IMG/VR virus record: IMGVR_UViG_2547132420_000011
From: a virus
Lineage: Duplodnaviria; Heunggongvirae; Uroviricota; Caudoviricetes
DNA: 43,501 nucleotides
Reading direction: 5' to 3' (one strand)
This document shows, piece by piece, positions 7,137 to 28,842 of the stretch. How positions within the stretch are numbered: position 1 is the first letter of the stretch; the number at the start of each line of letters is the position of its first letter. The notes below the pieces were generated by a model. It ran no database searches. It saw only the letters and a list, made by a program, of their open reading frames with translations, and was not told where the DNA came from. Position numbers and translations under genes: made by a program.

Positions 7137-7227
7137 GTTTTGATTTTAAAACACAGATGGTTTTGTTTCTTGACTTTCTTTGGTTTTGATTATTAAACTT
7201 TTGACGTTCAGTTTTATGGAGCGACTC
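7137..7227. promoter_or_regulatory. Divergent immunity promoter/operator region (OR/PR/PRM analogue)
   Basis: 91-bp AT-rich intergenic region between divergent repressor and cro-like genes; repeated TTGA(C/T)TTT and GGTTTTG motifs. Confidence 0.5.
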
Positions 7228-7458
7228 ATGAAAAAATCAGAAGTATTAGGCTATTTTGGCGGAGTTGTTAAAACAGCCGCAGCTCTTGGAACGTCAAAAA
7301 CCACAGTCAGCATGTGGGGGGAAGAGGTTCCGTGGAAATGGGCGTTGCTAATTCAGGCAGTCACTGCCGGGGCGCTCAAATATGAGTTACACATACCGAC
7401 GGTTGTCATTCCCGGTTCTGATCATAATCCGCCTTCTAACCAAGGGGGGGATTCATGA
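7228..7458 (+). CDS. Cro-like HTH regulator
   Basis: ATG at 7228 preceded by GGAG; 76 aa; HTH-like segment VVKTAAALGTSKTTVSMW; stop overlaps the next gene start (ATGA). Confidence 0.7.
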   Translation: MKKSEVLGYFGGVVKTAAALGTSKTTVSMWGEEVPWKWALLIQAVTAGALKYELHIPTVVIPGSDHNPPSNQGGDS

Positions 7459-7880
7459 AAATCAAGCATGAACACATCCGCATGGCGATGAATGCCTGGG
7501 CGCATCCGGACGGCGAAAAAGTACCGGCTGCGAAAATTACCAAAGCGTATTTCGAGCTGGGAATGACGTTCCCGGAACTGTATGACGACAGCCATCCGGA
7601 AGCCCTGGCTCGCAATACCCAGAAAATTTTCCGCTGGGTAGAGAAAGACACCCCTGATGCAGTTGAAAAAATTCAGGCGTTGTTACCAGCGATCGAAAAG
7701 GCAATGCCACCTTTGCTGGTGGCCAGAATGCGCAGCCACAGTTCAGCTTATTTTCGGGAGCTGGTGGAGACGCGGGAGCGACTGGTGAGAGACGCTGATG
7801 ATTTTGTCGCAGTGGCAATCGCCGGTTTCAATCAGATGAACCGTGGTGGCCCGGCAGGAAATGCTGTGGCAGTACATTGA
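7455..7880 (+). CDS. YdaT-like protein (CII-like regulator position)
   Basis: 141 aa, translationally coupled to cro-like gene; size and position match YdaT of Rac-type prophages (from memory). Confidence 0.55.
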   Translation: MKIKHEHIRMAMNAWAHPDGEKVPAAKITKAYFELGMTFPELYDDSHPEALARNTQKIFRWVEKDTPDAVEKIQALLPAIEKAMPPLLVARMRSHSSAYFRELVETRERLVRDADDFVAVAIAGFNQMNRGGPAGNAVAVH

Positions 7881-9819: not shown

Positions 9820-11823
9820 ATGATTATGAGTGAAAATGATACAACCCCAAAGAAGTCTACAAGCCAGATTAACAAAGCGGTATTCTTTACATCTGCTTTG
9901 CTAATTTTCCTTCTTGTCGCCTTTGCCGCCGTATTCCCGGATGTCGCCGACAAAAATTTTAAACTACTTCAGCAACAAATCTTCACGAATGCCAGCTGGT
10001 TCTACATACTTGCTGTGGCCCTGATTTTACTGAGCGTCACGTTCCTTGGACTCTCACGTTACGGTGATATAAAGCTGGGCCCAGACCATGCGCAGCCTGA
10101 TTTCAGCTACCACTCCTGGTTCGCGATGCTTTTTTCGGCAGGGATGGGGATCGGCCTGATGTTCTTTGGCGTTGCCGAACCTGTGATGCATTATCTTTCG
10201 CCACCTGTCGGCACTCCAGAGACCGTTGCGGCAGCGAAGGAAGCCATGCGCCTGACGTTCTTCCACTGGGGTCTGCACGCATGGGCAATTTATGCCATCG
10301 TGGCGCTGATTCTGGCCTTTTTCAGTTACCGTCACGGTCTGCCTTTAACGCTGCGTTCTGCGCTCTATCCCATTATCGGCGATCGCATTTACGGGCCTAT
10401 AGGCCACGCGGTTGATATCTTCGCCGTGATAGGCACTGTCTTTGGCGTTGCAACATCGCTGGGTTACGGTGTATTGCAGGTGAATGCCGGTTTGAACCAT
10501 CTTTTCGGCGTGCCCATCAATGAAACGGTACAGGTCATTTTGATCGTGGTCATCACGGGGTTAGCGACGATTTCGGTGGTGTCCGGCCTGGACAAGGGAA
10601 TACGCATCCTGTCTGAGCTTAATCTGGGCCTGGCGGTGTTGCTCCTGGCGCTGGTCTTGTGCCTGGGTCCCACTGTGCTTCTGCTGAAGTCATTTGTGGA
10701 AAATACGGGTGGTTATCTGTCGGAACTGGTGAGTAAAACGTTCAACCTTTACGCGTATGAACCCAAGTCGAGCAACTGGCTGGGGGGCTGGACATTATTA
10801 TACTGGGGATGGTGGCTTTCATGGTCGCCGTTTGTAGGTATGTTCATTGCACGCGTTTCCCGCGGCAGGACAATTCGTGAGTTCGTGACTGGCGTGTTGT
10901 TTGTTCCCGCCGGCTTTACGCTCATGTGGATGACGGTGTTTGGAAACAGCGCCATCTATCTCATCATGAACCAGGGCGCCACTGACCTCGCCAATACCGT
11001 TCAGCAGGATGTTGCGCTTGCCCTGTTTAATTTCCTGGAGCATTTCCCGTTCTCTTCCGTGCTGTCATTCATTGCAATGGCGATGGTCATCGTCTTCTTT
11101 GTAACGTCTGCTGATTCGGGGGCAATGGTTGTGGATACTCTGGCATCAGGTGGGGTGGCAAACACGCCCGTCTGGCAGCGAATTTTCTGGGCATCGCTCA
11201 TGGGCGTTGTTGCTATTGCCCTGCTGATCGCAGGGGGGCTGAGTGCGTTGCAAACCGTAACGATAGCGAGTGCATTGCCCTTCTCAGTTATCTTATTAAT
11301 ATCCATATACGGACTGTTAAAAGCCCTGCGTCGGGATTTGACCAAGCGTGAAAGCCTTAGCATGGCGACTATTGCTCCTACGGCTGCACGTAACCCAATT
11401 CCCTGGCAGAGAAGGTTACGCAATATCGCGTATTTGCCGAAGCGCTCTCTTGTGAAACGTTTTATGGACGACATTATCCACCCCGCCATGACGCTGGTTC
11501 AGGAGGAACTTAACAAGCAGGGAACGATAAGCCACATCAGTGACGCCGCCGAGGATCGTATTCGCCTTGAAGTCGATTTGGGCAACGAGCTGAATTATAT
11601 ATATGAAGTGAGGCTTCGCGGGTATAACTCACCGACCTTCGCGCTCGCTGCGCTGGATAATGATGAGCAGCAGAGTGAACAACATCGATATTATCGCGCT
11701 GAAGTCTATCTCAAAGAGGGCGGCCAAAATTATGATGTAATGGGCTGGAATCAGGAACAGCTGATTAATGACATACTGGACCAGTACGAAAAACACCTGC
11801 ACTTCCTGCATCTGGTTCGTTAA
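9820..11823 (+). CDS. BCCT-family transporter, BetT-like (choline/betaine/carnitine)
   Basis: 667 aa, multiple TM helices; motifs GIGLMFFGVAEP and WTLLYWGWWLSWSPFVGMFIARVSRGRTIREF typical of BCCT transporters; hydrophilic C-terminal tail as in BetT; ATG at 9826 is an alternative start. Confidence 0.85.
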   Translation: MIMSENDTTPKKSTSQINKAVFFTSALLIFLLVAFAAVFPDVADKNFKLLQQQIFTNASWFYILAVALILLSVTFLGLSRYGDIKLGPDHAQPDFSYHSWFAMLFSAGMGIGLMFFGVAEPVMHYLSPPVGTPETVAAAKEAMRLTFFHWGLHAWAIYAIVALILAFFSYRHGLPLTLRSALYPIIGDRIYGPIGHAVDIFAVIGTVFGVATSLGYGVLQVNAGLNHLFGVPINETVQVILIVVITGLATISVVSGLDKGIRILSELNLGLAVLLLALVLCLGPTVLLLKSFVENTGGYLSELVSKTFNLYAYEPKSSNWLGGWTLLYWGWWLSWSPFVGMFIARVSRGRTIREFVTGVLFVPAGFTLMWMTVFGNSAIYLIMNQGATDLANTVQQDVALALFNFLEHFPFSSVLSFIAMAMVIVFFVTSADSGAMVVDTLASGGVANTPVWQRIFWASLMGVVAIALLIAGGLSALQTVTIASALPFSVILLISIYGLLKALRRDLTKRESLSMATIAPTAARNPIPWQRRLRNIAYLPKRSLVKRFMDDIIHPAMTLVQEELNKQGTISHISDAAEDRIRLEVDLGNELNYIYEVRLRGYNSPTFALAALDNDEQQSEQHRYYRAEVYLKEGGQNYDVMGWNQEQLINDILDQYEKHLHFLHLVR

Positions 11824-11886
11824 CAGCAACATGCCGCCACAGAGGCGGCATTTATTTATCCCGGCTGCAATATGAGGGAATGCAGA

Positions 11887-13164
11887 ATGATTTCACGCTG
11901 GAAATGGATGCTGAAGCAGACATTTAAAAAACTATGGTTCAGGGCAACGTTATTCGCAATTGTCGCAATAATAACGGCCCTTTTATCAATTCTTTTTAAA
12001 TCAATGATACCTGAGTCGGTTTCCGTGAAGGTTGGTGCGGAAGCAGTCGATAACATTCTGAACATACTGGCATCGAGTATGCTGGCAGTGACCACATTTT
12101 CGCTGAGCATCATGGTCACAGCCTACGGTTCAGCCACTACTAATGTGACTCCCAGAGCTACTCGTTTAGTTGTTGAAGACGTCACCACACAAAATGTACT
12201 GGCCACCTTCATCGGTTCTTTTCTCTTCAGTCTGGTAGGGATTATTGCCCTCAATATGGGAGCTTATGGAGAAAGGGGGAGAGTCATTTTATTCATTGTA
12301 ACACTGGTTGTCATTGCCTTAATCCTCATCACATTGCTTCGCTGGATACAGCATTTGACCTCTCTGGGGAGGGTTGGTGAGACAACGGCAAAAGTAGAAC
12401 AGGCGGCCATCGAAACATTTATTGCGAGAGCAAGAAATCCCTGTCTCGGCGGATATCCATGGCTTGAGAACAATGAACAGCCGAAAGGAACGGTTGCAGT
12501 TTATCCGAAAAAGATTGGCTATATTGAATATGTTGATATGGTGAAACTCAGCAAGCTGCTGACCAATGATCCCCGTCATGTATACCTCGTGGCGCAGCCG
12601 GGCAGTTTCATACATCCGTCCACGCCAGTTTTGTACCTGAGTCAGGGCCAGGAGTCATCAATCAGCACCGATTTACTTGAGACGATTATTGTCTCGGATG
12701 TACGTTCATTTGCTCAGGACCCCCGATTTTGTCTTAGCGTCATGGCCGAAATAGCCTGCCGAGCCCTTTCCCCCGCAGTGAACGATCCTGGAACCGCCAT
12801 TGATGTCATTGGCAGAGGTGTACGTATACTTTCCGCTTACGCGCAGAATAAATCTGATGAAATAGAAGTGAAATATCCTTCTGTACATGTTGCACCACTT
12901 CAGAATAACGATCTACTTGAAGACTTTTTCTCACCTGTTGCGCGCGATGGTGCCAGTATGAGGGAAATTCAGATAAGGGTACTTAAAGGACTGTCGATGC
13001 TGAGTAAGGGTTGGCCTGGAATTTTTGCTGAAGCCGCACAAACCCTAGCATTTGAAACATTAGAGCATGCTACTCGTGCTGACCATATAGATTCTGACAG
13101 ATATCTAATAAAATCAATTTATTATAATTTATTTAGTGGCGAAGATTCTAATAAAAAACCATAG
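11887..13164 (+). CDS. Membrane protein with N-terminal TM helices and soluble C-terminal domain (DUF2254-like, from memory)
   Basis: ORF 11872..13164; ATG at 11887 has a better GAGGGA spacing; four predicted TM segments in the first 170 aa. Confidence 0.65.
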   Translation: MISRWKWMLKQTFKKLWFRATLFAIVAIITALLSILFKSMIPESVSVKVGAEAVDNILNILASSMLAVTTFSLSIMVTAYGSATTNVTPRATRLVVEDVTTQNVLATFIGSFLFSLVGIIALNMGAYGERGRVILFIVTLVVIALILITLLRWIQHLTSLGRVGETTAKVEQAAIETFIARARNPCLGGYPWLENNEQPKGTVAVYPKKIGYIEYVDMVKLSKLLTNDPRHVYLVAQPGSFIHPSTPVLYLSQGQESSISTDLLETIIVSDVRSFAQDPRFCLSVMAEIACRALSPAVNDPGTAIDVIGRGVRILSAYAQNKSDEIEVKYPSVHVAPLQNNDLLEDFFSPVARDGASMREIQIRVLKGLSMLSKGWPGIFAEAAQTLAFETLEHATRADHIDSDRYLIKSIYYNLFSGEDSNKKP

Positions 13165-13294
13165 TTGCGGAGCAAGCGATACGGTTGTTGGCAAGTCAAG
13201 GGCAAAGCATTCGCGTGAGAGTGGGCGTCTGCTTTGTGCCAGAAGCGGACATACGTAACTTATGATACGCATCGCCAATCATCCGTTTCAAACA

Positions 13295-14176
13295 TCAACG
13301 CGGAAACGTTTTAAGAATGTAATCCCGAACATAGGCGGTTCGGCTGTTATTAGCCGTCCTTTTGTTCCAGACCAGATAAAGATGATTAGTCGGAGCGAGG
13401 TCTGCAGGTGTCACTGAAATCAGGCGACCACTTTTCAGGTCATTGTCACAGTGATAATCCGGCAGCACTGTCCACCCGTGGCCGTCACAGACCAAGTCGC
13501 GGATAATACGTAAATCCGGAATGGTGAATGTAGCCTGCATCTCAGGGGCTCTCTGAAACATGGAGGCCCAGAGCGCTCTAATCAGTGGCAACTCTTCGTC
13601 ATAAGCAATCAGCGGTAATGAGGCAAGCGTTTCAGCACCAGGTTCTGATCCGATGATCTCTGACATGGCGGGAGCATGAACAAGGAGCATGCGTTCAGTC
13701 AGTAGATGTGCATAGCCGTACAGACGGTCATCAGGCATAGATGCGGTAACAGCGAGATCGGCGCTCCCGTCATGCAAAAGGGAATAAATACGTTGCTTAT
13801 TGCCGGTATGAAAGCGTAGGCGATACCCCTCCTTCATTAGTGGAGCCATTACTGTCCCAAGCCGGGAATGAATAAAATCTGGCGGTCCTGCCAGATTAAT
13901 TGTTCCCCCACGTACAGAGCCTGACCGGAAAGAGGACAGCTTTTCTTCCAGACCATCAATGAAGGGTGAAACTGAGCGGGCAAGCTCATCCGCAGCTTCG
14001 GTTGCCGTCACGCCTCTGGCCTGCCTGATAAACAGACGCTTACCAACCAGAGTCTCAAGAGACTGGATATGCTGTGACGCCGCGGGCTGAGTGATGCCCA
14101 GTAGTTCTGCCGCCTTTGAAAAGGAGCCAGAGCGATAGGCCTCAAGAAACGTTCGCAGATGGCTCAGATGGCTCAT
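13295..14176 (-). CDS. LysR-family transcriptional regulator
   Basis: 293 aa; N-terminal HTH (SFSKAAELLGITQPAASQHIQSLE), LysR substrate-binding-like C-terminal domain; start overlaps the upstream ChaC-like gene stop. Confidence 0.85.
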   Translation of the reverse strand: MSHLSHLRTFLEAYRSGSFSKAAELLGITQPAASQHIQSLETLVGKRLFIRQARGVTATEAADELARSVSPFIDGLEEKLSSFRSGSVRGGTINLAGPPDFIHSRLGTVMAPLMKEGYRLRFHTGNKQRIYSLLHDGSADLAVTASMPDDRLYGYAHLLTERMLLVHAPAMSEIIGSEPGAETLASLPLIAYDEELPLIRALWASMFQRAPEMQATFTIPDLRIIRDLVCDGHGWTVLPDYHCDNDLKSGRLISVTPADLAPTNHLYLVWNKRTANNSRTAYVRDYILKTFPR

Positions 14177-14865
14177 AGTGAAGCGCCTCGCTGATGAAGT
14201 TTATCGTTACAGGGAGCCTCATGCAGAGCAAGGGCCAGTTCACTCACGTAATCATCCCGTATTCCCAACGCACCCAGAGTGGCCTGCAGTTTCCATACAT
14301 AATCTGCATTCGTGCCAATGTCTCCACGGGCAGATGCGATGCTCAACGCTACGGTCGCTGTAAGATTGTCCTGTTCATAATGCGGATGCAGTCTGTCTGA
14401 TACGAAAGCCAGCGCCTGAATTTCCTTACCGTTTCCTAGCGAAACGTCTGCCCAGACCGGACGGTAAAGACCGGTTATCATCTCGCGCGTCCAGACAATT
14501 TCCAGCTCATTAATAAGAGTCGATTCCGGCAGTCTGAACGCAATACCTTCGGTAATTCCACCTTCGTCGAGCGATAACATCCTGCCGGGGACATCAGGAG
14601 TCGCTCGTCCGGATATCAAACGAATGCAGAAACTGCGCTGCCATCCTTTCAGACGGGCCCGTTGCATTTCTTCAATCGCCAGCACGGGATTCCACATCAA
14701 TGACCCGTAGGCAAATATCCAGACAGGAGCACCCGTCGGGCGCTCCTCCAGAGTAGAGTTCATTGATGCGCGTATTTTTTCAGCGTCCCAGAGCATATTC
14801 GCCGGGAGCAGCGCTTCATGCACCCTGACAAATGTGCCATTAAGCATATTTTCACGGGTAAGCAT
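14173..14865 (-). CDS. ChaC-like gamma-glutamylcyclotransferase
   Basis: 230 aa; motif FAYGSLMWNP characteristic of the ChaC family. Confidence 0.8.
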   Translation of the reverse strand: MLTRENMLNGTFVRVHEALLPANMLWDAEKIRASMNSTLEERPTGAPVWIFAYGSLMWNPVLAIEEMQRARLKGWQRSFCIRLISGRATPDVPGRMLSLDEGGITEGIAFRLPESTLINELEIVWTREMITGLYRPVWADVSLGNGKEIQALAFVSDRLHPHYEQDNLTATVALSIASARGDIGTNADYVWKLQATLGALGIRDDYVSELALALHEAPCNDKLHQRGASL

Positions 14866-14876
14866 ATAACCTCCCT

Positions 14877-16076
14877 TTACTGGCCTACGATTTTAACCTG
14901 TTGAAATTTACGACTGTGGCTGCGACGGATTTGTGCAAGCAGCAACAGCAGGCCGAGCAGAGAAACAATCGCACCGCTGATACCGGTATACACGATACCG
15001 GCGTGGCTTATAGTAATGCTGCCCAGTACTGATCCCAGCGCTATACCTGAGTTGAAGCCCGCAATATTCAGGCCGGCAGCAACACCATGCGCATGAGGAG
15101 CATGTTGCTCAGCGACACCAATCAGACGGGCCTGCAGTGCCGGCACTGCGGCAAATGTCACCATACCCAGTAGCGCAACCAGAATGCCCATGCTCACCGG
15201 TGAGGATGACAGCAGCCACATACCAAGCACGACAACAACAATGCCGCTAATGATGAGTATATTGGCACGATTAACCCCCATGCTGTCGGTAAGTTTCCCA
15301 CCAAGAATATTACCTACCGCAGCTGTAATACCGTAAACCAGCATAAACAGACTCACCGTTGCTCCGGTAACCCCTGTCACCTGCGTCAGAATAGGTGCGA
15401 TAAAGGTGTAATCCGTAAACGAGCCTGCATACGCCAGCACCGTAACCAGCGCGCCGGCCAGCAACTTACGGTTAAACAGCATGCCGATATTCTGCATTGC
15501 TGAGTCACTATGTTCACCGGGCACGCTGCGTACGGGATCTTTCATACCGAACAACAGTCCAAGGAATCCGAACGCGCCAAAAGCGGCAATAGCGCCGAGA
15601 ACTGGACGCCATGAGACCACCCCCCCCAACCATGTACTCAGCGGTACGCCGATTGCCATCGCCAGAGTAAAGCCACCAAATACCACAGCCACCGCTCTGC
15701 CTGCTTTACCCGGTCCAGCAAGACGAGCTGCGGTACTGGATGCCGCAGCCAGAAACAGGCCGTGTCCCAGACCAGCAATGAACCGCGCTAACAGGAGCTG
15801 AGGTAATGTGGCTGCAAACGCGGCCGCCAGACTACCGGCAGTAAACACAACGGCAGTTGTAAGCATTACATTTTTCCGGCTCCAGCTTGCTGTCAGCGCA
15901 GACAGTACGGGTGCCGCGAACGTTGCCCCCAGTGCATAGGTTGTAACCGCTGCCCCGGTCTGCTCCACACCCACACACAACCCCTGAGCCATAACGTCTG
16001 TCAGCCCAATGGGGACAAATTCCGCGAGTCCGAGCGCAAAGGCACTGATAGTAAACACATAAATAACAAATGGCAT
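14877..16076 (-). CDS. MFS transporter
   Basis: 399 aa, about 12 TM helices, Gly/Ala-rich hydrophobic composition typical of the major facilitator superfamily. Confidence 0.85.
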   Translation of the reverse strand: MPFVIYVFTISAFALGLAEFVPIGLTDVMAQGLCVGVEQTGAAVTTYALGATFAAPVLSALTASWSRKNVMLTTAVVFTAGSLAAAFAATLPQLLLARFIAGLGHGLFLAAASSTAARLAGPGKAGRAVAVVFGGFTLAMAIGVPLSTWLGGVVSWRPVLGAIAAFGAFGFLGLLFGMKDPVRSVPGEHSDSAMQNIGMLFNRKLLAGALVTVLAYAGSFTDYTFIAPILTQVTGVTGATVSLFMLVYGITAAVGNILGGKLTDSMGVNRANILIISGIVVVVLGMWLLSSSPVSMGILVALLGMVTFAAVPALQARLIGVAEQHAPHAHGVAAGLNIAGFNSGIALGSVLGSITISHAGIVYTGISGAIVSLLGLLLLLAQIRRSHSRKFQQVKIVGQ

Positions 16077-18551: not shown

Positions 18552-18841
18552 TGGTGAATTTACGTAAAGCGGCTAAAGGCCAGATGTGCCAGATCAGAAT
18601 CCCTGGCTACTGCAATCACAATCCCGAAACCTCTGTGCTGGCGCATTACAGGCTGGCGGGGACGTGCGGAACAGCGACAAAACCACACGATATGCAGGCG
18701 GCGATAGCCTGTAGCTCATGCCACGATCTAATCGACGGGCGGGTAAAAACCAGCGATTACACCAAAGAAGAATTGCGCCTGATGCATGCTGAAGGGGTTT
18801 TTCGCACACAAGAAATCTGGAGAAAGAAAGGTCATTTATGA
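18551..18841 (+). CDS. ybcO: YbcO-like protein (DUF1364, putative nuclease with Cys/His metal site)
   Basis: 96 aa; motifs CQIRIPGYCNHNPETSVLAH and ACSSCHD resemble DLP12 YbcO (from memory); translationally coupled to flanking genes. Confidence 0.7.
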   Translation: MVNLRKAAKGQMCQIRIPGYCNHNPETSVLAHYRLAGTCGTATKPHDMQAAIACSSCHDLIDGRVKTSDYTKEELRLMHAEGVFRTQEIWRKKGHL

Positions 18842-19380
18842 TTTACCCAACGAATACAGGAAAAAGCGGAGAACACCTTCGCCTCACCACGCTGGAAAGT
18901 GTCTGGATTCAGGGAAAACTACGTATGTGGGGGCGCTGGTCGTATATTGGCGGTGGCAGGTCAGGGAATATGTTCAATCAGTTGTTGGCATCCAAAAAAC
19001 TGACGAAAACAGCCATTAATGAAGCCCTGCGTAGAATGAAAAAAGCGGGAATAGAGAAAGCTGAGCTGGAAGCGTTTTTGCGAGAGATGATCAACGGCAA
19101 GCAAAAGAGCTGGCTGGCGCATTGTACTGATGCAGAGGCGTTATGTATTGATCGAGTCATAAGTGAGGTGCTGGCAGAGCATCCAGGATTGATTTGCATT
19201 CTCCGGCAACGCTATGAAGGGCGGGGGATGACTAAGCGCAAAATGGCTGAATTGCTAAATGATGGACACCCAGAGTGGTGTTTTAGCACATGCGAAAAAC
19301 GGATTGCTAATTGGTTAGCTGTTGCTGAGTATGCCCTATATATTCCCATGCGTGAATCATTTGCTGAGAAAATGGCTTGA
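18838..19380 (+). CDS. Putative late-gene antiterminator (Q-like), called by position
   Basis: 180 aa; last nin-region gene, followed 80 nt downstream by a strong intrinsic terminator and then the late/lysis genes. Confidence 0.55.
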   Translation: MIYPTNTGKSGEHLRLTTLESVWIQGKLRMWGRWSYIGGGRSGNMFNQLLASKKLTKTAINEALRRMKKAGIEKAELEAFLREMINGKQKSWLAHCTDAEALCIDRVISEVLAEHPGLICILRQRYEGRGMTKRKMAELLNDGHPEWCFSTCEKRIANWLAVAEYALYIPMRESFAEKMA

Positions 19381-21649: not shown

Positions 21650-21865
21650 ATGAAATCCATGGACAAAATTTCAACAGGCATTGCCTACGGCACCTCCGCA
21701 GGCAGTGCTGGCTACTGGTTTTTACAGTTGCTCGATAGAGTAACTCCGTCACAGTGGGCTGCAATCGGTGTGCTGGGTAGTCTGGTATTTGGCCTGCTGA
21801 CGTACCTGACAAACCTTTATTTCAAGATTAAAGAAGATAAGCGCAAGGCTGCGAGAGGTGAATAA
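21650..21865 (+). CDS. S: Holin, phage 21 S-like pinholin with dual start
   Basis: ORF 21593..21865; ATG at 21650 preceded by GGAGGTGAGG; [26 protein letters not shown]... matches S21 from memory; second in-frame ATG at 21659; 71 aa. Confidence 0.85.
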
Positions 21866-22362
21866 TGCCTCCATCATTACGAAAAGTCGTTGCTGCTGCT
21901 ATTGGTGGCGGAGCAATTGCTATAGCATCAGTGTTAATCACTGGCCCAAGTGGTAACGATGGTCTGGAAGGTGTCAGCTACATACCATACAAAGATATTG
22001 TTGGTGTATGGACTGTATGTCACGGGCATACAGGAAAAGACATCATGCTCGGTAAAACGTATACCAAAGCAGAATGCAAAACACTCTTGAATAAAGACCT
22101 TGCCACGGTCGCCAGACAAATTAACCCGTACATCAAAGTCGATATACCGGAAACAACGCGCGGCGCTCTTTACTCATTCGTTTACAACGTGGGTGCTGGC
22201 AATTTCAGAACATCGACGCTTCTTCGCAAAATAAACCAGGGCGATATCAAAGGCGCATGTGATCAGCTACGTCGCTGGACATATGCTGGCGGTAAGCAAT
22301 GGAAAGGTCTCATGACTCGTCGTGAGATTGAGCGTGAAATCTGTTTGTGGGGTCAGCAATGA
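21865..22362 (+). CDS. R: SAR endolysin (lysozyme, phage 21 R-like)
   Basis: 165 aa; N-terminal Gly/Ala-rich signal-arrest-release segment [20 protein letters not shown] followed by lysozyme-like domain; start overlaps holin stop (TAATG). Confidence 0.85.
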
Positions 22363-22823
22363 ACAGAGTAACCGCGATTATCTCCGCTCTGGTTATCTGC
22401 ATCGTCGTCTGCCTGTCATGGGGTGTTAATCATTACCGTGATAACGCCATCGCCTACAAAGAACAGCGCGACAAAAATGCCAGAGAACTGAAGCTGGCGA
22501 ACGCGGCAATTACTGACATGCAGATGCGTCAGCGTGATGTTGCTGCGCTCGATGCAAAATACACGAAGGAGTTAGCTGATGCGAAAGCTGAAAATGATGT
22601 TCTGCGTGATGATGTTGCCGCTGGTCGTCGTCGGTTGCACATCAAAGCAGTCTGTCAGTCAGTGCGTGAAGCCACCACCGCCTCCGGCGTGGATAATGCA
22701 GCCTCCCCCCGACTGGCAGACACCGCTGAACGGGATTATTTCACCCTCCGGGAACGACTGGTAATGATGCAGGCCCAACTTGAAGGTGCTCAGCAATACA
22801 TAACCGAGCAGTGTTTAAAGTAA
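22359..22823 (+). CDS. Rz: i-spanin Rz
   Basis: ORF 22347..22823; ATG at 22359 overlaps the endolysin stop; N-terminal TM segment then coiled-coil-rich periplasmic domain. Confidence 0.8.
22579..22764 (+). CDS. Rz1: o-spanin Rz1 (lipoprotein embedded in Rz in the +1 frame)
   Basis: 61 aa; signal peptide with lipobox VVGC; Pro-rich mature part ([15 protein letters not shown]); entirely within Rz; AGGAG upstream. Confidence 0.75.
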
Positions 22824-22960
22824 AATCTTAACTACAATATGATTCATTTTGATGATTGTTTCATAAGAAACAGTGAAGTAAGATCTAAGAGGAGTTAAAT
22901 TTTATACAGTATAATCATAATATTGCAGCAAGGTGGTTATAATTGAAAGAATATTTAGAT

Positions 22961-24418
22961 ATGAATACATCTCATGTAAGAGTTGTTACTCATATGTGTG
23001 GGTTCCTGGTTTGGCTCTATAGTCTTTCAATGTTGCCACCAATGGTTGTAGCATTGTTTTATAAAGAAAAAAGCCTGTTCGTTTTCTTTATAACTTTCGT
23101 TATATTTTTTTGCATTGGTGGCGGAGCGTGGTATACAACTAAGAAATCTGGCATTCAATTACGTACCCGTGATGGGTTTATTATAATTGTAATGTTTTGG
23201 ATTTTGTTTTCTGTTATTAGTGCATTCCCTTTATGGATTGACTCAGAACTTAATTTAACGTTCATTGATGCTCTGTTTGAAGGGGTTTCTGGAATAACAA
23301 CAACAGGAGCAACTGTAATTGATGATGTTAGTTCATTACCTCGGGCATATTTGTACTATCGGTCACAGTTAAATTTTATAGGTGGTTTAGGAGTTATTGT
23401 TCTGGCGGTTGCTGTATTGCCATTATTGGGTATTGGTGGTGCAAAGCTTTATCAGTCAGAAATGCCGGGGCCATTTAAGGATGACAAACTCACTCCCCGC
23501 CTGGCCGATACGTCACGGACACTGTGGATAACTTATTCTTTATTAGGTATTGCTTGTATTGTCTGTTATAGACTTGCAGGAATGCCTTTGTTTGATGCTA
23601 TTTGTCACGGGATTTCCACAGTTTCGCTTGGTGGTTTCTCAACTCATAGCGAGAGTATCGGATATTTTAATAACTATTTGGTTGAGCTGGTGGCTGGTTC
23701 TTTTTCCCTGCTATCGGCTTTCAACTTCACTCTTTGGTATATTGTTATTAGCAGGAAAACGATAAAACCTTTAATCAGAGATATTGAACTTCGTTTCTTT
23801 CTGTTAATAGCCTTAGGGGTGATCATTGTTACCTCTTTCCAGGTCTGGCATATAGGTATGTATGACTTGCATGGAAGTTTTATTCATTCGTTTTTTCTTG
23901 CCAGCTCCATGCTCACTGATAATGGTTTAGCTACGCAGGATTATGCAAGTTGGCCCACGCACACGATAGTGTTTTTGCTGTTGTCAAGTTTCTTTGGGGG
24001 ATGTATAGGTTCAACTTGTGGTGGAATTAAGTCACTTCGATTTCTTATACTTTTCAAACAAAGCAAACACGAGATAAATCAGCTTTCTCATCCCAGAGCG
24101 TTGTTGAGTGTAAATGTAGGAGGGAAGATAGTTACAGATCGTGTAATGAGGTCTGTATGGAGTTTCTTTTTTCTTTATACTCTCTTCACGGTGTTTTTTA
24201 TACTGGTGTTAAATGGTATGGGATATGATTTTCTTACATCATTTGCAACAGTGGCTGCATGTATTAATAATATGGGATTAGGTTTTGGGGCTACTGCATC
24301 GTCATTCGGAGTGCTTAATGACATTGCAAAATGTTTAATGTGCATAGCTATGATTCTTGGTCGCCTTGAAATTTATCCTGTTATTATATTGTTTTCAGGT
24401 TTTTTTTGGCGCTCCTAA
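22961..24418 (+). CDS. trkG: Potassium uptake protein TrkG (TrkH/TrkG family)
   Basis: ORF 22943..24418; ATG at 22961 gives 485 aa starting MNTSHVRVVTHMCGFLVWLYSL, matching E. coli Rac-prophage TrkG from memory; AT-rich gene. Confidence 0.9.
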   Translation: MNTSHVRVVTHMCGFLVWLYSLSMLPPMVVALFYKEKSLFVFFITFVIFFCIGGGAWYTTKKSGIQLRTRDGFIIIVMFWILFSVISAFPLWIDSELNLTFIDALFEGVSGITTTGATVIDDVSSLPRAYLYYRSQLNFIGGLGVIVLAVAVLPLLGIGGAKLYQSEMPGPFKDDKLTPRLADTSRTLWITYSLLGIACIVCYRLAGMPLFDAICHGISTVSLGGFSTHSESIGYFNNYLVELVAGSFSLLSAFNFTLWYIVISRKTIKPLIRDIELRFFLLIALGVIIVTSFQVWHIGMYDLHGSFIHSFFLASSMLTDNGLATQDYASWPTHTIVFLLLSSFFGGCIGSTCGGIKSLRFLILFKQSKHEINQLSHPRALLSVNVGGKIVTDRVMRSVWSFFFLYTLFTVFFILVLNGMGYDFLTSFATVAACINNMGLGFGATASSFGVLNDIAKCLMCIAMILGRLEIYPVIILFSGFFWRS

Positions 24419-24555
24419 TATATGGCTGATTTATAATTGTGAGTTTAATATTATGTTGACTCACTCATTGATCCAATACCTAACTTTACCAGCAACCCCT
24501 CCGTCCCCAGTAGCACTGGCTGCTGGGGTGCGTTTTATTCATAAAGCAAGGCTGT

Positions 24556-25350
24556 ATGAGCGAGAAATTAAAGATAGTCTATCGCCCATTACAAGAATTG
24601 TCACCGTATGCGCACAACGCCAGGACGCACAGCCCTGAGCAGGTGGCACAACTGGTAGAAAGTATTAAGCAATTCGGCTGGACTAATCCGGTGCTGATTG
24701 ACGAAAAGGGCGAAATTATTGCGGGTCACGGTCGTGTTATGGCGGCTGAAATGCTCAAAATGGATTCTGTTCCGGTCATTGTTCTGTCTGGCCTGACGGA
24801 TGAGCAGAAAAAGGCGTACCGCCTGGCAGATAATCGCCTGCCGATGAATGCTGGCTGGGATGAAGATCTGTTGCGGATGGAGCTGTCGGACCTAATCAAT
24901 GCTGATTTTGATGTCTCCCTGACAGGCTTCATCCCGACAGAAATTGATGAACTGTTGACGGATGTTTTGCCCGGTACAGGAAATGAGGAGGAGCCGTATA
25001 CGACGAAAATTGATACGCCTGTTTATGAGCCGTCGGGCGGTAAACCGGATATCAGTGAACTGTACGACGATACGAAAACTCAGGAGCTGATCAGCCGGAT
25101 ACGTTCGGCGTCCCTTGATCCTGATATTGAGAAATTCCTCCTGTGTGCGGCAGAACGTCACACAGTGTTTAATTTCAGCAGAATTGCGGACTATTACGCT
25201 CATGCCCCCGCTGAAATTCAGTGCCTTTTCGAGGAGTCGGCGCTGGTGATCATTGATTATCAGCAGGCTATTGAAAATGGATTTGTCCGAATGACGCAGC
25301 GCATGGTGGAGATCATGCATGGCGGGGAGGAGGAGGAGGAATATGCGTGA
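24556..25350 (+). CDS. ParB-like nuclease domain protein (full-length YnaK-like)
   Basis: 264 aa; N-terminal ParB/Srx-like region (VYRPLQELSPYAHNARTHSPEQV ... GHGRVMAA); C-terminus ends GGEEEEEYA encoded by a GGAGGAGGAGGAGGA repeat. Confidence 0.8.
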   Translation: MSEKLKIVYRPLQELSPYAHNARTHSPEQVAQLVESIKQFGWTNPVLIDEKGEIIAGHGRVMAAEMLKMDSVPVIVLSGLTDEQKKAYRLADNRLPMNAGWDEDLLRMELSDLINADFDVSLTGFIPTEIDELLTDVLPGTGNEEEPYTTKIDTPVYEPSGGKPDISELYDDTKTQELISRIRSASLDPDIEKFLLCAAERHTVFNFSRIADYYAHAPAEIQCLFEESALVIIDYQQAIENGFVRMTQRMVEIMHGGEEEEEYA

Positions 25351-26275
25351 TGATTTTTGCGCCTTTATTCTGACTCACGGGCGACCGGACAAAGTTCTGA
25401 CTTACCGGACGTTGCGTCGTGCTGGCTATACCGGGAAAATTTTTATCGTTGTTGATGATGAAGATAAGACACGGCATCAGTACATGGCTGAATTTGGTGA
25501 ACAGGTGCTGGTATTTTCCAAAGCCGATATTGCCAGTCGTTTTGACGAAGCCGATAATTTTGGTGATCGCCGCTCAATTTTTTACGCCCGTAATGCCTGT
25601 TTCGACCTGGCAAAACTGGTCGGGTGTAAATACTTCATTCAGCTCGATGATGATTATCACGAGTTCCAGTTTCGGGTGGATCGCAACTATGACCAGGCCT
25701 ATTTCCCGATAAGGAAACTGGATGCGATCCTTTCTGAAATGCTGGCGTATTACGAATCAATACCCGCGCTTTCCATCGCTATGTCGCAGGGCGGGGATTT
25801 TCTTGGTGACAATGGCGGCCATGCTTCGTGGGTGAAACGCAAGGCAATGAACAGCTTTATCTGTTCGGTTGATCGACCGTTCTCATTCATGGGGCGCATT
25901 AACGAGGATGTGAATACGTACACGAATCTCGGTCGCTGTGGTGAATTGTTTATGACGATCGGTGCTGTCCAGTTAGGGCAGAAACAGACGCAGAAAAACA
26001 GCGGCGGAATGACCGAGCTGTATCTGGATTCCGGAACCTACGTTAAAAGTTTTTACTCCGTCATGTATTCGCCGTCGTGCGTAAAAATCTCACTGATGGG
26101 TGCCAGCCATAAACGCATTCACCATCAGGTCACCTGGAACAACGCTGCAGTAAAAATCCTTCACGAAAAATACAGGAAGAAGACACCCTGCATATCAATG
26201 GGGGTGACAAATGATTCCGTATTCGAAAGTCGAGTCTCTGGCAGCGTGCCGGATGACTGCACAACAAATCGCTGA
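25343..26275 (+). CDS. Hypothetical protein; possible nucleotide-sugar transferase-like fold (DxD-type acidic motifs), unassigned
   Basis: ORF 25319..26275; ATG at 25343 lies directly after the GGAGGA repeat; motifs FIVVDDEDKT and FIQLDDDYHEF; overlaps the ParB-like stop by 8 nt. Confidence 0.55.
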   Translation: MRDDFCAFILTHGRPDKVLTYRTLRRAGYTGKIFIVVDDEDKTRHQYMAEFGEQVLVFSKADIASRFDEADNFGDRRSIFYARNACFDLAKLVGCKYFIQLDDDYHEFQFRVDRNYDQAYFPIRKLDAILSEMLAYYESIPALSIAMSQGGDFLGDNGGHASWVKRKAMNSFICSVDRPFSFMGRINEDVNTYTNLGRCGELFMTIGAVQLGQKQTQKNSGGMTELYLDSGTYVKSFYSVMYSPSCVKISLMGASHKRIHHQVTWNNAAVKILHEKYRKKTPCISMGVTNDSVFESRVSGSVPDDCTTNR

Positions 26276-26462
26276 CGTTCTGGATGTTGATCTGAACCGA
26301 CTGAAAGAAAATCGGGAAGCAATGACAGATTTTTATGCGGCCATCCGTAAGGGCAGAGCGAAAGGTGAAGCCGAGTTACGAGCGGCATTGTTTAAGCTTG
26401 CCAGAAAAGGGGATGCCTTTGCTCTGCGCGAACTACTCAGGGTGGATAAAAATCAGGACTAA
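26211..26462 (+). CDS. Small HTH-like protein upstream of terminase
   Basis: 83 aa; ATG at 26211 preceded by GGGGGTGA but overlaps the upstream gene by 65 nt (internal ATG at 26253 would overlap 23 nt); stop 4 nt before terS. Confidence 0.4.
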   Translation: MIPYSKVESLAACRMTAQQIADVLDVDLNRLKENREAMTDFYAAIRKGRAKGEAELRAALFKLARKGDAFALRELLRVDKNQD

Positions 26463-26465
26463 CTG

Positions 26466-27560
26466 ATGAGCAGACCGGACTGGGGGGCGTTGCAGCAGGA
26501 GTATATTGCTGAATACACCCGCTCCGGTATATCTCCGGTGGCATGGTGTGAAGCAAGGGGACTGAACTACGCAACAGCCCGTCGTTACATCAAAAAAACT
26601 CCGAAAAATGCGCAGAAAGAAATGCGCAAAACTGCGCAAAAAAGTGCGCGAAAAAAAACTGCGCAGACTGCGCAAAGGCAGAACAGAAAATCTCAGAAAA
26701 AAAAGGCTGTATCCGATGCACTCCTGATTGAGGGGGACACGGAAGAAATTTCGTTCTGCCCCGATGAATTCGGTATTTCTGACCAGCAGGCAAAATTCGC
26801 CATGTTGGTTGCTCAGGGGAAAAAGCCGACAGAGGCATACCGACTGGCTGGTTATGAGGGGCAAGGTGCGACAGCTAACAGCAACGCCAGCCGTATGCTT
26901 AGAAATGCCAGGGTTTATCGTGCTATCAGCTACTTCCGCAATCAGTACCAGAAACGCTATACCGCAGACCTGGATTTACTGGTGAGCCAGTTGATGGCCA
27001 TTGTCCAGGCCGACCCCAATCAGTTGGCACAATTTCGCCGTGTTAACTGCCGTTATTGCTGGGGCGAGAATCATCTCTACCAGTGGCGTGATATTGCAGA
27101 ATTCGATAAGGCTGCGGCACAGGCCTCCAGAGATGGTAAACCCGAGCCGGAATATGGAGGCCTCGGCTTTGTTGATAACGCCATACCCAATCCTGATTGC
27201 CCGAAGTGCTGCGGTGAGGGAACAGGACAGCTTTATATGGCTGATACCACACTGCTTGATGGGGATGCGCGGCAATTATATGCAGGGTCAAAGCTCGGAA
27301 AATACGGTGTTGAGATCCTGCTGGAGGATAAGGCTGCCGCCCGGCGTGAATTGTTGCGTTTGCTTTCTGCTGGCGGGGCATTATGTGCAGATAAGCGGCT
27401 ACAGGAACTGGAAATTGAACGGCGCAGAATAGAGAACCAGAAGCTGCGCAAAGAGATCGAAACGGTGGAGGATAATGAACATCCCCAGCCTGTGGCGATC
27501 AATATTAATGTGGTTGATGCCAGATTAAGGAGTGATGAAGATGATCTCTCCGACGCTTAA
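26466..27560 (+). CDS. Terminase small subunit with extended Cys-rich C-terminal region
   Basis: 364 aa; N-terminal HTH, Lys-rich repeat, then motif GATANSNASRMLRNARVYRAI typical of small terminases (from memory); C-terminal Cys clusters CRYCWGENH and CPKCCGEG. Confidence 0.7.
   Translation: MSRPDWGALQQEYIAEYTRSGISPVAWCEARGLNYATARRYIKKTPKNAQKEMRKTAQKSARKKTAQTAQRQNRKSQKKKAVSDALLIEGDTEEISFCPDEFGISDQQAKFAMLVAQGKKPTEAYRLAGYEGQGATANSNASRMLRNARVYRAISYFRNQYQKRYTADLDLLVSQLMAIVQADPNQLAQFRRVNCRYCWGENHLYQWRDIAEFDKAAAQASRDGKPEPEYGGLGFVDNAIPNPDCPKCCGEGTGQLYMADTTLLDGDARQLYAGSKLGKYGVEILLEDKAAARRELLRLLSAGGALCADKRLQELEIERRRIENQKLRKEIETVEDNEHPQPVAININVVDARLRSDEDDLSDA
26609..26674. repeat. Six TGCGC(A/G) hexamer repeats in A-rich context inside terS (candidate pac/TerS-binding site)
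   Basis: TGCGCA at 26609, 26623, 26633, 26660, 26669 and TGCGCG at 26645, located by codon position; encodes KNAQKEMRKTAQKSARKKTAQTAQ. Confidence 0.45.
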
Positions 27561-28842
27561 TGTGCCTCAGGCGCGATTTCTTTCAATGCCCCATAAATTT
27601 AAAGCCTATATTGCTGGTTTTGGCTCGGGCAAAACATGGGTTGGGTGTGGCGGCATATGCAAGGGGATTTGGGAGCATCCAGGTATAAATCAGGGATATT
27701 TTGCGCCAACGTATCCCCAAATTCGCGATATTTTTTACCCTACAGTGGAAGAAGTTGCTGCTGACTGGGGATTGAACGTAAAAATTAATGAGGGAAATAA
27801 AGAGGTTCACTTTTATTACGGACGCCAGTATCGGGGAACCACTATCTGCAGATCGATGGAGAAGCCACAAACGATCGTCGGTTTCAAAATTGGTAATGCG
27901 CTGGTGGATGAACTGGACATTTTGCCGAAGGAAAAAGCCAGAACGGCGTGGCGCAAGATAATTGCGCGTATGCGTTATAAGATTGATGGACTTCGCAACG
28001 GTATTGACGTTACAACCACGCCGGAAGGATTCAAATTTGTCTACGAGCAGTTTGTTAAAGCCGTGCGTGAAAAAACAGATCTGGCCTCACTGTATGGTCT
28101 GGTGCAGGCATCTACTTTCGATAATGAAAAGAACCTGCCAGCAGATTACATTCCTTCACTTCTTGAATCATACCCTCCAGAGCTGATTAAAGCCTATCTT
28201 CTAGGACGGTTTACTAACCTGACAAGTGGTACTGTTTACCATCAGTTTGACCGGAAACTGAATAATTGCGAAGAAGTGGAGCAGCCAGGGGAGCCGATTT
28301 ATATTGGGATGGATTTTAACGTTGGAAAGATGGCGGGAATCGTCCATGTGCTGCGTTTGGGGCTTCCATGTGCGGTAACTGAAATCATCAATGCCTACGA
28401 TACGCCGGATATGATCCGCCTCATTAAAGAACGCTTCTGGCTGTATGACGGGCATGATTACCGGAAAGTGAGGGAGATTTATATTTATCCAGATGCTTCC
28501 GGAGATTCCAGAAAATCAAGTAACGCAAGTACGACGGATATAGCCCAGCTTAAGCAGGCAGGTTTTAACGTTGTGGTGAACAGCTCGACCCCGCCAGTAA
28601 AAGATCGCGTTAACTCAATGAATGCAATGTTCTGCAATGCCAATGGTGAGCGTCGCTATAAAGTTAATGTGAAGCGTTGTCCGGTATATGCCGAATCTCT
28701 GGAGCAACAGGTCTGGGATGATAAGGGGGAGCCTGATAAAAAATCTGGCAATGATCACCCGAATGATGCCGGAGGTTATTTCATCGTTAAGCAATTCCCT
28801 ATTGTCAAACCGACCGGAAGAGTCACATCACTTCGGATTTAA
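27535..28842 (+). CDS. Terminase large subunit
   Basis: ORF 27532..28842; ATG at 27535 preceded by AGGAG; Walker A-like AGFGSGKTW; C-terminal nuclease-like acidic residues; overlaps terS 3' end. Confidence 0.9.
   Translation: MKMISPTLNVPQARFLSMPHKFKAYIAGFGSGKTWVGCGGICKGIWEHPGINQGYFAPTYPQIRDIFYPTVEEVAADWGLNVKINEGNKEVHFYYGRQYRGTTICRSMEKPQTIVGFKIGNALVDELDILPKEKARTAWRKIIARMRYKIDGLRNGIDVTTTPEGFKFVYEQFVKAVREKTDLASLYGLVQASTFDNEKNLPADYIPSLLESYPPELIKAYLLGRFTNLTSGTVYHQFDRKLNNCEEVEQPGEPIYIGMDFNVGKMAGIVHVLRLGLPCAVTEIINAYDTPDMIRLIKERFWLYDGHDYRKVREIYIYPDASGDSRKSSNASTTDIAQLKQAGFNVVVNSSTPPVKDRVNSMNAMFCNANGERRYKVNVKRCPVYAESLEQQVWDDKGEPDKKSGNDHPNDAGGYFIVKQFPIVKPTGRVTSLRI

Follow-up and report, generated by a model that had tools for sequence, protein, structure and literature searches.

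We analysed a 43,501-nucleotide (nt) stretch of viral DNA (IMG/VR record IMGVR_UViG_2547132420_000011, Caudoviricetes; the whole stretch is called the window below), which is a Rac-like lambdoid prophage. Upstream of its terminase genes lie two overlapping genes at 24556-26275, the first for a 264-amino-acid (aa) protein with a ParB/Srx-fold N-terminal module (the partner) and the second for a 310-aa protein, which we assign below to a family of glycosyltransferases (the GT). This pair of genes, its conservation in many phyla and its possible function are the subject of this study.

A gene pair upstream of the terminase genes

The partner protein ends in ...HGGEEEEEYA, and a previous reading of the DNA from its letters and open reading frames (ORFs) alone (the sequence-only reading) had noticed that the glutamate codons of this tail, GGAGGAGGAGGAGGA, double as the ribosome-binding site of the overlapping 310-aa gene. 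This arrangement was confirmed: the run occurs once in the window and ends 2 nt 5' of the ATG at 25343, and the GT start overlaps the partner stop by 8 nt (ATGcgTGA, with TGA at 25348-25350). An alternative reading of the GT gives 318 aa from ATG 25319, yet every homologue begins with MRDDF, so that ATG 25343 is taken as the start. The last ~22 aa of the E. coli GT are an E. coli-specific extension, which creates a 65-nt overlap with the TerS-like ORF at 26211-26462; the homologues in other genera are 284-290 aa long without this extension, and their stop is located at the start of the TerS-like ORF.

Between the lysis genes and the pair stands an inserted trkG-like gene with its own strong terminator-like hairpin (24505-24528) on its 3' side. 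This low-GC insertion is a classic Rac-type moron. Because the hairpin parts trkG from the pair, the pair is probably transcribed only by read-through in Q-antiterminated late transcription. The features of the locus are listed in Table 1.

Table 1. Features of the gene pair and of the prophage around it (window coordinates).
Feature	Position	Strand	Remarks
Integrase	545-1663		window left end; followed by exonuclease-domain protein, cI-/cII-like regulators, replication protein and Ren
NinB, HNH protein, then Q-like antiterminator gene	18838-19380 (antiterminator)		between cargo island and lysis genes
Lysis genes	21865-22823		upstream of the trkG insertion
trkG-like potassium transporter gene	22943-24418		36-40% GC, against ~49% for the pair
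Terminator-like GC-rich hairpin and T-run	24505-24528	+	10-bp stem, 7 GC pairs, tail TGCGTTTTAT
Partner gene, 264 aa, full-length YnaK-type	24556-25350	+	ParB/Srx N-module, acidic linker, conserved C-terminal domain, acidic tail
ParB/Srx-fold N-module, residues 1-141	24556-24978	+	GxxRxxA signature G57-H-G-R60-V-M-A63, plus D92-N93
Short linear motif Y148-T-x-K-I-x-x-P155-x-Y157-E-P159	24997-25032	+	predicted disordered linker, pLDDT <50
Helical C-terminal domain, residues ~170-250	25063-25305	+	FLxxAAxRHxVFxFxxIADYY...LxExSALVIIDxxxAIxxG; no Pfam family
Acidic C-terminal tail GEEEEEYA	25324-25347	+	acidic tail conserved family-wide
GGAGGAGGAGGAGGA run	25326-25340	+	partner Glu codons (GGAGG run) doubling as Shine-Dalgarno of the GT gene
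GT gene, TAGT-family GT-A glycosyltransferase, 310 aa	25343-26275	+	assigned from Pfam, PHROG, AlphaFold2, Foldseek and alignments
DxD-type motif D102-D103-D104 (QLDDDY)	25646-25654	+	presumed metal and NDP-sugar site; invariant in 34 homologues
Small TerS-like ORF, 83 aa	26211-26462	+	phrog_309; precedes the 364-aa TerS
Small terminase (TerS), 364 aa	26466-27560	+	directly downstream of the TerS-like ORF
Large terminase (TerL)	27532-28842	+	followed by portal, head and tail genes

Conservation, distribution and decay of the pair

In a scan with one genome per species, GT homologues of 45-60% identity were found in Proteobacteria, Bacteroidota, Clostridia, Veillonella, Verrucomicrobia, Kiritimatiellae, Acidobacteriota, Planctomycetota, Patescibacteria and an archaeal metagenome-assembled genome. 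Of 80 species-diverse loci, 78 have a homologue of the partner as the next gene upstream, on the same strand as the GT (158 of 160 when all loci are counted), and the two unpaired loci of the 80 are both at contig edges. An overlap of 4-20 nt between the partner stop and the GT start was measured in 75 of 83 diverse loci (11 nt in 38 and 8 nt, as here, in 27), which speaks for coupled and roughly stoichiometric synthesis of the two proteins, and a Shine-Dalgarno (SD)-like motif precedes the GT start in 53 of the 83. Judged from this gene order, the partner and the GT are a strict two-gene module. No third conserved gene was found by all-against-all clustering of the ORFs of 85 diverse loci, which gave only antisense shadow ORFs, assorted terminases, SSB and a C5-methyltransferase (9 loci), and a Pfam census of 141 downstream and 130 upstream neighbour genes gave nothing consistent.

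The pair is also found in named viruses: in Lactobacillus phages phi jlb1 and c5 (in c5 as ORF1/ORF2, right after cos), in Nocardia phage NTR1 (Orf1/Orf2), in HHTV-2, a virus of haloarchaea with 41% identity between its partner and that of E. coli, and in 195-kb Vibrio phages, where the gene 5' of the GT encodes only the C-terminal domain of the partner (C-domain; 139 aa, 55% identical). About 8 metagenomic loci also have a C-domain-only partner, with no ParB N-domain found within 6 kb, and about 10% of the modules have the C-domain and the GT without the ParB N-domain. On the other hand, 18 partners that were scored as 'C-only' by phmmer have a divergent ParB-like N-domain after all (hhalign probability 99.8%).

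At least 80% of the pair is present in 889 of 5426 complete E. coli genomes (~16%, about one in six). Lysogens with the intact pair include hosts of the vB_EcoS-6xxR phages. In the laboratory K-12 strains the match is limited to the first ~254 nt of the pair (ynaK, ydaY), in accordance with the previous remark that only truncated remnants survive in the Rac prophage of K-12. In many other E. coli assemblies, what is left of a truncated GT or ParB-like gene is joined to pieces of tail-fibre, Lom, NlpC/P60 or terminase genes (the chimeric homologues P0007, P0023, P0040, P0042, P0201, P0218 and P0232 in our protein list, for example). These chimeras appear to be deletion scars like the ynaK-ydaY remnant of K-12, and breakpoints of prophage decay seem to be frequent at this locus.

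The 310-aa protein as a TAGT-family glycosyltransferase

The GT matches Pfam PF20691 (TAGT) with an E-value of 5.5e-35 and 121.6 bits against a cutoff of 27.5, residues 8-222 being aligned to positions 4-205 of the 205 in the model, and it matches phrog_842 at 1.4e-103; PF20691 is also precomputed on every GT homologue in our list. The sequence-only reading could assign no family to this protein, which according to these profiles is a clear member of the TAGT family (TET-associated glycosyltransferase). A glycosyltransferase fold, one of those that had been suggested for checking, was right: the AlphaFold2 model shows a GT-A fold that is confident for residues 1-215, with a per-residue confidence (pLDDT) above 87 across most of residues 1-150. 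Foldseek with this model against the PDB gave generic GT-A enzymes only, at E ~1e-5 (COLGALT1, LH3, GnT-I, SpsA and glycogenin, with further matches to GalNAc-T2 and SunS/ThuS), and sequence search found no solved structure of the family. Against the viral models of BFVD, proteins with the TAGT domain came top (E 2e-24, TM 0.73/0.81), and a T4-like beta-glucosyl-HMC-alpha-GT was lower in the list. NCBIfam had no informative model for the GT or the partner, and the PADLOC defence models had no match for the GT. The RefSeq name of the E. coli GT is 'GREB1-related protein'.

The two acidic motifs that had been pointed out before are present, VVDDED at residues 35-40 and QLDDDY at residues 100-105, and the invariant residues in 34 aligned homologues are R14, D38, D41, D102-D104, E188-D189 and a string of C-terminal residues. 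R14, D102-D104 and E188-D189 fit the R...DDD...ED active-site pattern of phage GT-A DNA glycosyltransferases (bioRxiv 10.1101/2023.12.21.572611). The characterised TAGT and GT-A phage enzymes use DNA as acceptor (PMC13216743; bioRxiv 2023.12.21.572611), and a survey of 2026 counted 'solitary' TAGTs of undefined function, namely without alpha- or beta-GT, in 288 of 753 GT-encoding phage genomes (PMC13216743). The GT family is basic, with a median isoelectric point (pI) of 8.9 and a pI of 9.7 in the conserved C-terminal region (residues 216-290).

Missing acceptor pathway

Selected ORFs of the window up to 28842 were scanned, two batches with Pfam and another set with PHROGs only. Among the ORFs scanned there is no source of 5-hydroxymethylcytosine (5hmC) or 5-hydroxymethyluracil (5hmU): no dCMP hydroxymethylase, TET, alpha-GT or beta-GT was found, the two Pfam batches have no TET/JBP or thymidylate-synthase-like family, and the Pfam/PHROG scans of selected ORFs have no hydroxymethylase, TET/JBP or DNA methyltransferase. 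Similarly, no family that would supply a 5-hydroxymethylpyrimidine is included in the 25 most frequent families among the 271 neighbour genes of the diverse loci. To our knowledge, characterised phage DNA glycosylation is always built on 5-hydroxymethyl- or 5-hydroxy-pyrimidines from dedicated phage enzymes. As neither a hydroxymethylase nor a TET gene is among the scanned ORFs, the acceptor would be something other than 5hmC made by the phage; the DNA acceptor, if any, must be a canonical or host-methylated base, a DNA end, the backbone or a site created by the partner, and none of these is a known acceptor of a GT-A enzyme.

These results bear on the role that is expected from the annotation. 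The enzyme of phages T2 and T6 adds a second glucose onto glucosyl-5hmC, and the GT could be its functional equivalent, as the label of phrog_842 and names derived from RefSeq would have it. The structural match to the T4-like phage enzyme and the membership of the T2/T6 beta-glucosyl-HMC-alpha-glucosyltransferase in the same Pfam family (PMC13216743) speak for this role. However, the GT is only 23-26% identical to the TAGTs of T4-like Aeromonas phages, and in the one such neighbourhood that was inspected, that of Aeromonas phage Aeh1, the adjoining genes are all 'hypothetical' and no ParB-like gene is named, the C-domain not having been searched there. Because the substrate pathway (dCMP hydroxymethylase, TET, alpha-GT and beta-GT) is absent from the scanned ORFs, a role of this kind is effectively refuted for this prophage, and we give it hardly any credence.

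The partner protein and its ParB/Srx module

Residues 1 to ~100 of the partner show the ParB/Srx fold, with Pfam ParB_N barely over its threshold and a profile search of the PDB giving Noc, ParB and Spo0J at ~1e-5. The nucleotide-binding signature GxxRxxA, as cited in PMC10164549, is conserved in the alignments of the partner family. Compared with methyltransferase families, the N-module scored 1.2e-50 with phrog_498 and 2.5e-38 with PADLOC MTase_II, of which just the N-terminus of the model was matched, against 1.2e-6 with partition ParB. By these scores, the N-module is much closer to the N-terminal parts of phage DNA methyltransferase families than to the ParBs of partition systems. By tblastn, the N-module was found in 427 phage records (30-60% identity), compared with 48 for the GT, and the genes in many of the 427 are annotated as DNA methylases, these fusions being known here from annotation. 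In Methanoculleus virus Blf4 (locus L168, 1242-2486), the ParB N-domain is fused to a PAPS-reductase-like domain (PAPS_reduct, 4.1e-14) just 5' of TerL, and Streptococcus phage Javan530 has a stand-alone ParB N-domain protein, followed by a P-loop NTPase, ~2 kb upstream of the terminase. The database name of the Blf4 fusion gene, 'DNA modification methylase', is misleading; this fusion of ParB-N and PAPS-reductase-like domains is of the IbrA/IbrB type. The many methylase annotations and the one PAPS-reductase-like fusion support the previous remark that ParB-like proteins near the packaging genes are often paired with modification genes.

Beyond residue 141, the partner consists of an acidic domain unrelated to partition ParB. 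The protein has no match to a partition-type helix-turn-helix (HTH), to another DNA-binding domain or to a dimerisation domain, and no membrane segment, and no ParA-like gene was found among the scanned ORFs of the window. The database label 'partition protein' is unsupported by these searches, and the label 'ParB-like nuclease' is annotation only, since no catalytic nuclease motif is assignable from the sequence.

It is very unlikely that the two genes have unlinked functions, with the ParB-like protein acting in partition, in packaging-site recognition or as a nuclease and the GT remodelling an envelope glycan for seroconversion or superinfection exclusion in the manner of TarP or Gtr. Such functions are suggested by the 'partition protein' label of the databases, by the resemblance of phage GT-A enzymes to TarP (bioRxiv 2023.12.21.572611) and by the pair of phage NTR1, which stands directly 5' of TerL with no annotated TerS between. 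However, the pairing and the overlap persist in Gram-negatives, Gram-positives and an archaeal virus, whose envelopes have no common acceptor, and neither ParA, a match to a parS-binding HTH nor a membrane segment was found as described above. Moreover, the pair of the window lies 3' of a terminator in a late operon, probably silent in lysogens, and TerS is present in the window.

The bare N-fragment that is left in K-12 (ynaK, equivalent to 24556 to ~24810) may have a cellular effect of its own: truncated ynaK raised the minimum inhibitory concentrations of six antibiotics in an overexpression screen of 2026 (PMC12924614), and the induction of ynaK by kanamycin or ciprofloxacin is earlier work cited there (PMC12924614). 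Two proteins of our list, P0266 and P0350, are architectural variants of the partner; one of them has two tandem ParB-like N-domains before the C-domain, and the other, which might be a chimera made by the assembly, starts with a fused N-terminal fragment of Toprim type.

The C-terminal domain, the peptide motif and the acidic tail

In an alignment of 68 partners from many phyla, the C-terminal half is the most conserved part, and the peptide YTxKIxxPxYEP is at least 80% conserved in the 68 sequences and is also present in HHTV-2, Nocardia phage NTR1 and the Vibrio phages. From these alignments, the invariant element of the partner is its C-terminal domain (YTxKIxxPxYEP and the following helices), not its ParB domain, and we propose that the peptide is a docking element for the GT or else an acceptor site. 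The acidic tail is likewise a conserved protein feature across phyla and not a by-product of the ribosome-binding site. These two points, the C-domain as the key element of the partner and the tail as a protein feature, were missed by the sequence-only reading. The overlap arrangement is not due to chance, because the tail is conserved at the protein level and the overlap and the SD-like motif recur in 75 and 53 of the 83 loci, respectively.

A search of 1.84 billion cluster representatives gave 1196 proteins with a homologous C-domain. Throughout the best 150 of the 1196, the C-domain stands at the C-terminal end of proteins of 93-433 aa, the longer proteins among the homologues being tandem ParB-N domains or chimeras. 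There are also sub-threshold matches (E 0.005-0.03) to PF23887, the family of mycobacteriophage L5 gene 47-like proteins, in four of five C-domain sequences tested, which include window 24976-25350 and the C-domain proteins of loci L029, L158 and L164. All of these weak matches fall on the AAERHTVFNFxxIADYY helix region, and there may be a remote relationship. In addition, the TAGT of Aeromonas phage Aeh1 (L166, 2189-3388, 399 aa) has a ~100-aa acidic N-terminal extension with MPRYEPK, which recalls the PxYEP of the partner, and an acidic C-terminal tail. This extension was tried as a fused C-domain and rejected, the hidden Markov model score (-1.3 bits) being not significant.

The partner of the window has a pI of 4.5, and the medians of the partner family are a pI of 4.6 and a charge of -21. 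In the E. coli partner, the N-domain is about neutral, the middle region has a charge of -10 and the C-terminal part -16. GT residues 216-290, the peptide motif of the partner and its tail are highly conserved, yet their pLDDT in the monomer models is below 50, which is the pattern expected of segments that would fold on binding. Because the charges of the two proteins are complementary and conserved segments have low monomer pLDDT, we propose that the C-domain and the peptide of the partner engage the GT in a heterocomplex.

Genomic contexts of the module

The modules with the ParB domain lie directly upstream of terminases from at least five families, and the ParB-less modules sit in replication clusters. 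The gene orders of the latter are PolA, a second TAGT paralogue, C-domain, GT and DNA polymerase III (pol III) beta clamp in locus L025; PolA, C-domain, GT and beta clamp in L029; TAGT paralogue, C-domain, GT and beta clamp in L064; and primase-helicase, C-domain and GT in L019. In the Vibrio phage, a helicase gene is located 3' of the GT. The pair of Vibrio phage VB_VaC_SRILMA is one of these ParB-less, replisome-linked variants. The ParB N-module and the linkage to the replisome look like alternative ways to bring the unit of GT and C-domain to DNA. It has also been suggested that the alpha-GT of phage T4 works in association with the replisome (PMC13216743). As far as gene neighbourhoods can tell, the genomic context points to DNA.

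A few loci carry enzymes of nucleoside diphosphate (NDP)-sugar metabolism, namely UDP-galactopyranose mutase, an RGP-like mutase, an epimerase/dehydratase and a nucleotidyltransferase. The second, divergent TAGT paralogue in L025 (2970-3845) and L064 (4794-5603) is encoded directly upstream of the C-domain gene, which suggests that two sugars are added in sequence in those phages. In six Clostridia-type loci (L055, L056, L057, L069 at 6864-7838, L072 and L079), a radical-SAM protein of ~320 aa is encoded between the GT and the terminase genes and may carry out a further modification step. With the NDP-sugar enzymes, the TAGT paralogue or the radical-SAM protein beside the pair, such loci resemble, by analogy, DNA-hypermodification clusters.

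Function of the pair and alternative explanations

Our best explanation, with a probability of about one half, is that the pair would be a two-subunit, nucleoside triphosphate (NTP)-switched, DNA-directed glycosyltransferase, made late, whose modification of the phage DNA ahead of packaging would serve as a counter-defence. The family, the fold, the motifs, the strictness of the pairing and the genomic contexts are established here and are the grounds on which we infer the complex, the NTP switching, the DNA acceptor and the protection. The prophage would make the pair at the start of its late (packaging) operon. The GT would be the basic, catalytic subunit that uses a host NDP-sugar via the DDD and ED motifs, and the partner would be its obligate subunit, synthesised in step with it via the overlapping stop and start, whose C-domain and YTxKIxxPxYEP peptide bind or activate the GT. 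The ParB/Srx N-module, in which GxxRxxA is intact, would be the NTP-dependent switch through which the enzyme is coupled to DNA. The acceptor would be a component of ordinary DNA or a site that the partner makes, and the product would be phage DNA glycosylated before packaging and protected from restriction-type defences in the next host. By analogy, the closest mechanistic precedent is the system of DpdA and DpdB, in which the modification of DNA bases by DpdA depends on DpdB, an NTPase with a ParB fold and a helical C-domain (PMC10164549).

A stricter form of this proposal, that the module puts a sugar on DNA without any hydroxymethylated base (on a canonical base, an end or the backbone) and that the GT is active only with its acidic C-domain partner under the NTP-controlled ParB/Srx switch, is tentative, and we consider it more likely to be wrong than right. 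The sequence-only reading had suggested that the pair may form a DNA-modification, anti-restriction or packaging-associated module; a real, conserved functional pair (78 of 80 loci) and the GT fold agree with this suggestion, but the lack of a 5hmC/5hmU-generating gene in the scanned ORFs and the acidic partner do not.

Several points weigh against a DNA-directed enzyme. There is the missing source of 5hmC or 5hmU, and we know of no GT-A enzyme that glycosylates unmodified DNA, so that the proposed chemistry would be without precedent. The partner is strongly acidic and has no recognisable HTH or DNA-binding domain, which makes direct DNA binding by the partner doubtful. The physical complex is deduced solely from gene order, overlap and charge, and no fusion of partner and GT (Rosetta-stone protein) was found in the best 150 of the 1196 C-domain homologues. 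Moreover, GREB1, a member of the TAGT family, was reported to O-GlcNAcylate a protein, the oestrogen receptor (PMC7968844).

The last point leads to the main rival, in which the GT glycosylates a protein, likeliest its own partner on Tyr or Thr of YTxKIxxPxYEP in a glycogenin-like manner, or else a protein of packaging, replication or the host that the partner recruits. Glycogenin adds glucose to a tyrosine of its own. The sole constant companion of the GT is a domain with an invariant, disordered and hydroxyl-rich peptide, the genes found in the prophage cannot make a known DNA acceptor, and, as with GREB1, protein glycosyltransferases (COLGALT1, LH3, glycogenin, GalNAc-T2 and SunS/ThuS) are numerous among the nearest solved GT-A folds. 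However, the fold matches are to generic GT-A enzymes, all at E ~1e-5, with no leaning to protein-acting ones; the translational coupling implies ~1:1 synthesis, as would be expected of the subunits of a complex more than of an enzyme with its substrate; and the N-module shared with DNA methyltransferase families and the PAPS-reductase-like fusion, together with the ParB-less variants in replisome clusters, points to DNA. We consider a protein target unlikely, though to be taken seriously.

The conserved phosphate-binding signature GxxRxxA also allows a two-step pathway, in which the ParB/Srx domain would be an ATP- or CTP-dependent phosphotransferase that makes or activates an acceptor or donor, and the GT would complete the modification of DNA or of a small molecule. 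Sulfiredoxin and the free serine kinases SerK and SbnI are such phosphotransferases. This pathway would explain how the GT works without a pre-existing hydroxymethyl base. On the other hand, about 10% of the modules do without the ParB N-domain, which therefore performs no indispensable step unless the replisome-linked variants use another enzyme, and its presence on other effectors (methyltransferase families and the PAPS-reductase-like domain) suggests a generic role in targeting or switching. We regard the two-step pathway as improbable.

Implications

Within the literature searched, which did not cover the founding paper of the TAGT family and leaves priority uncertain, we did not find a description of the obligate coupled two-gene unit, of the unannotated C-domain as the invariant partner, of the swap between ParB-N and replisome context, or of the occurrence of the module, which extends to 889 of the 5426 complete E. 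coli genomes and includes a prophage whose scanned ORFs gave no source of 5hmC. The glycosylation of DNA is a well-known way in which phages counter host defences. The module offers a concrete unit for at least part of the 'solitary' TAGT group (PMC13216743).

If the sugar goes to DNA, either the modification chemistry or the acceptor would be new, and this in one of the best-studied organisms, with consequences for restriction, CRISPR and the sequencing-based methylome analysis of E. coli prophages. If the sugar is put on non-hydroxymethylated DNA, this would be a previously unrecognised DNA modification, which ~16% of the complete genomes of E. coli encode, as do viruses of haloarchaea and of many bacterial phyla. 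If the target is a protein, the pair would be a self-contained phage protein-glycosylation system common to bacteria and archaea. Either way, the databases mislead with 'partition protein' as the label of the first gene and 'beta-glucosyl-HMC-alpha-glucosyltransferase' as that of the second.

Comparison with known systems

With the TAGT family (the T2/T6 enzyme and the TET/5mYOX-associated GT-A enzymes of phages), the GT has in common the Pfam/PHROG match, the GT-A fold, the R...DDD...ED pattern, the phage origin and the best structural matches. Unlike these systems, hmC, TET, ThyS-like and primary GT genes were not found among the prophage ORFs scanned, and the clade of the pair has an obligate coupled partner and a fixed place before the terminase or in a replisome cluster. 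GREB1 shares the Pfam GT domain with the E. coli GT, but is a large eukaryotic protein without a ParB-like partner or phage context.

DpdB of the 7-deazaguanine modification system has an architecture like that of the partner, a ParB fold with a helical C-domain. However, DpdB is a member of the DGQQR/DUF262 branch that is basic where it surrounds a DNA tunnel, whereas the partner has GHGR and is strongly acidic, and DpdA is a TGT-like transglycosylase in contrast to the GT-A glycosyltransferase here. Neither DGQQR nor a TGT is present in the pair, and the resemblance is an analogy of mechanism and not a homology of systems.

The phage fusions of ParB-N to methyltransferase families or the PAPS-reductase-like domain have an N-module homologous to residues 1-141 and occupy the same slot just upstream of the terminase. 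In the pair, by contrast, the effector is a GT on a separate gene, linked via the dedicated C-terminal domain, which the Blf4 fusion does not have. The partition ParBs and their relatives (Spo0J, Noc, KorB and PadC; CTP-dependent DNA clamps) share the ParB/Srx fold and the GxxRxxA signature, but the partner differs in having no HTH or dimerisation match, no ParA, only weak similarity (1e-5 to 1e-6) and an acidic character. ParB-like genes near phage GTs have been noted in passing before (bioRxiv 2023.12.21.572611).

Other features of the prophage

Near the left end of the window, an 823-aa protein (1963-4434, minus strand) consists of a ~640-aa N-terminal region without Pfam match and a C-terminal Rv2179c-like 3'-5' exonuclease domain (residues 642-813). 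This protein has the position that RecE has in Rac. The early region of the prophage also contains a cargo island (9820-16076) with genes for a BCCT betaine/carnitine/choline transporter, a DUF2254 membrane protein, a LysR regulator, a ChaC-like protein and an MFS transporter.

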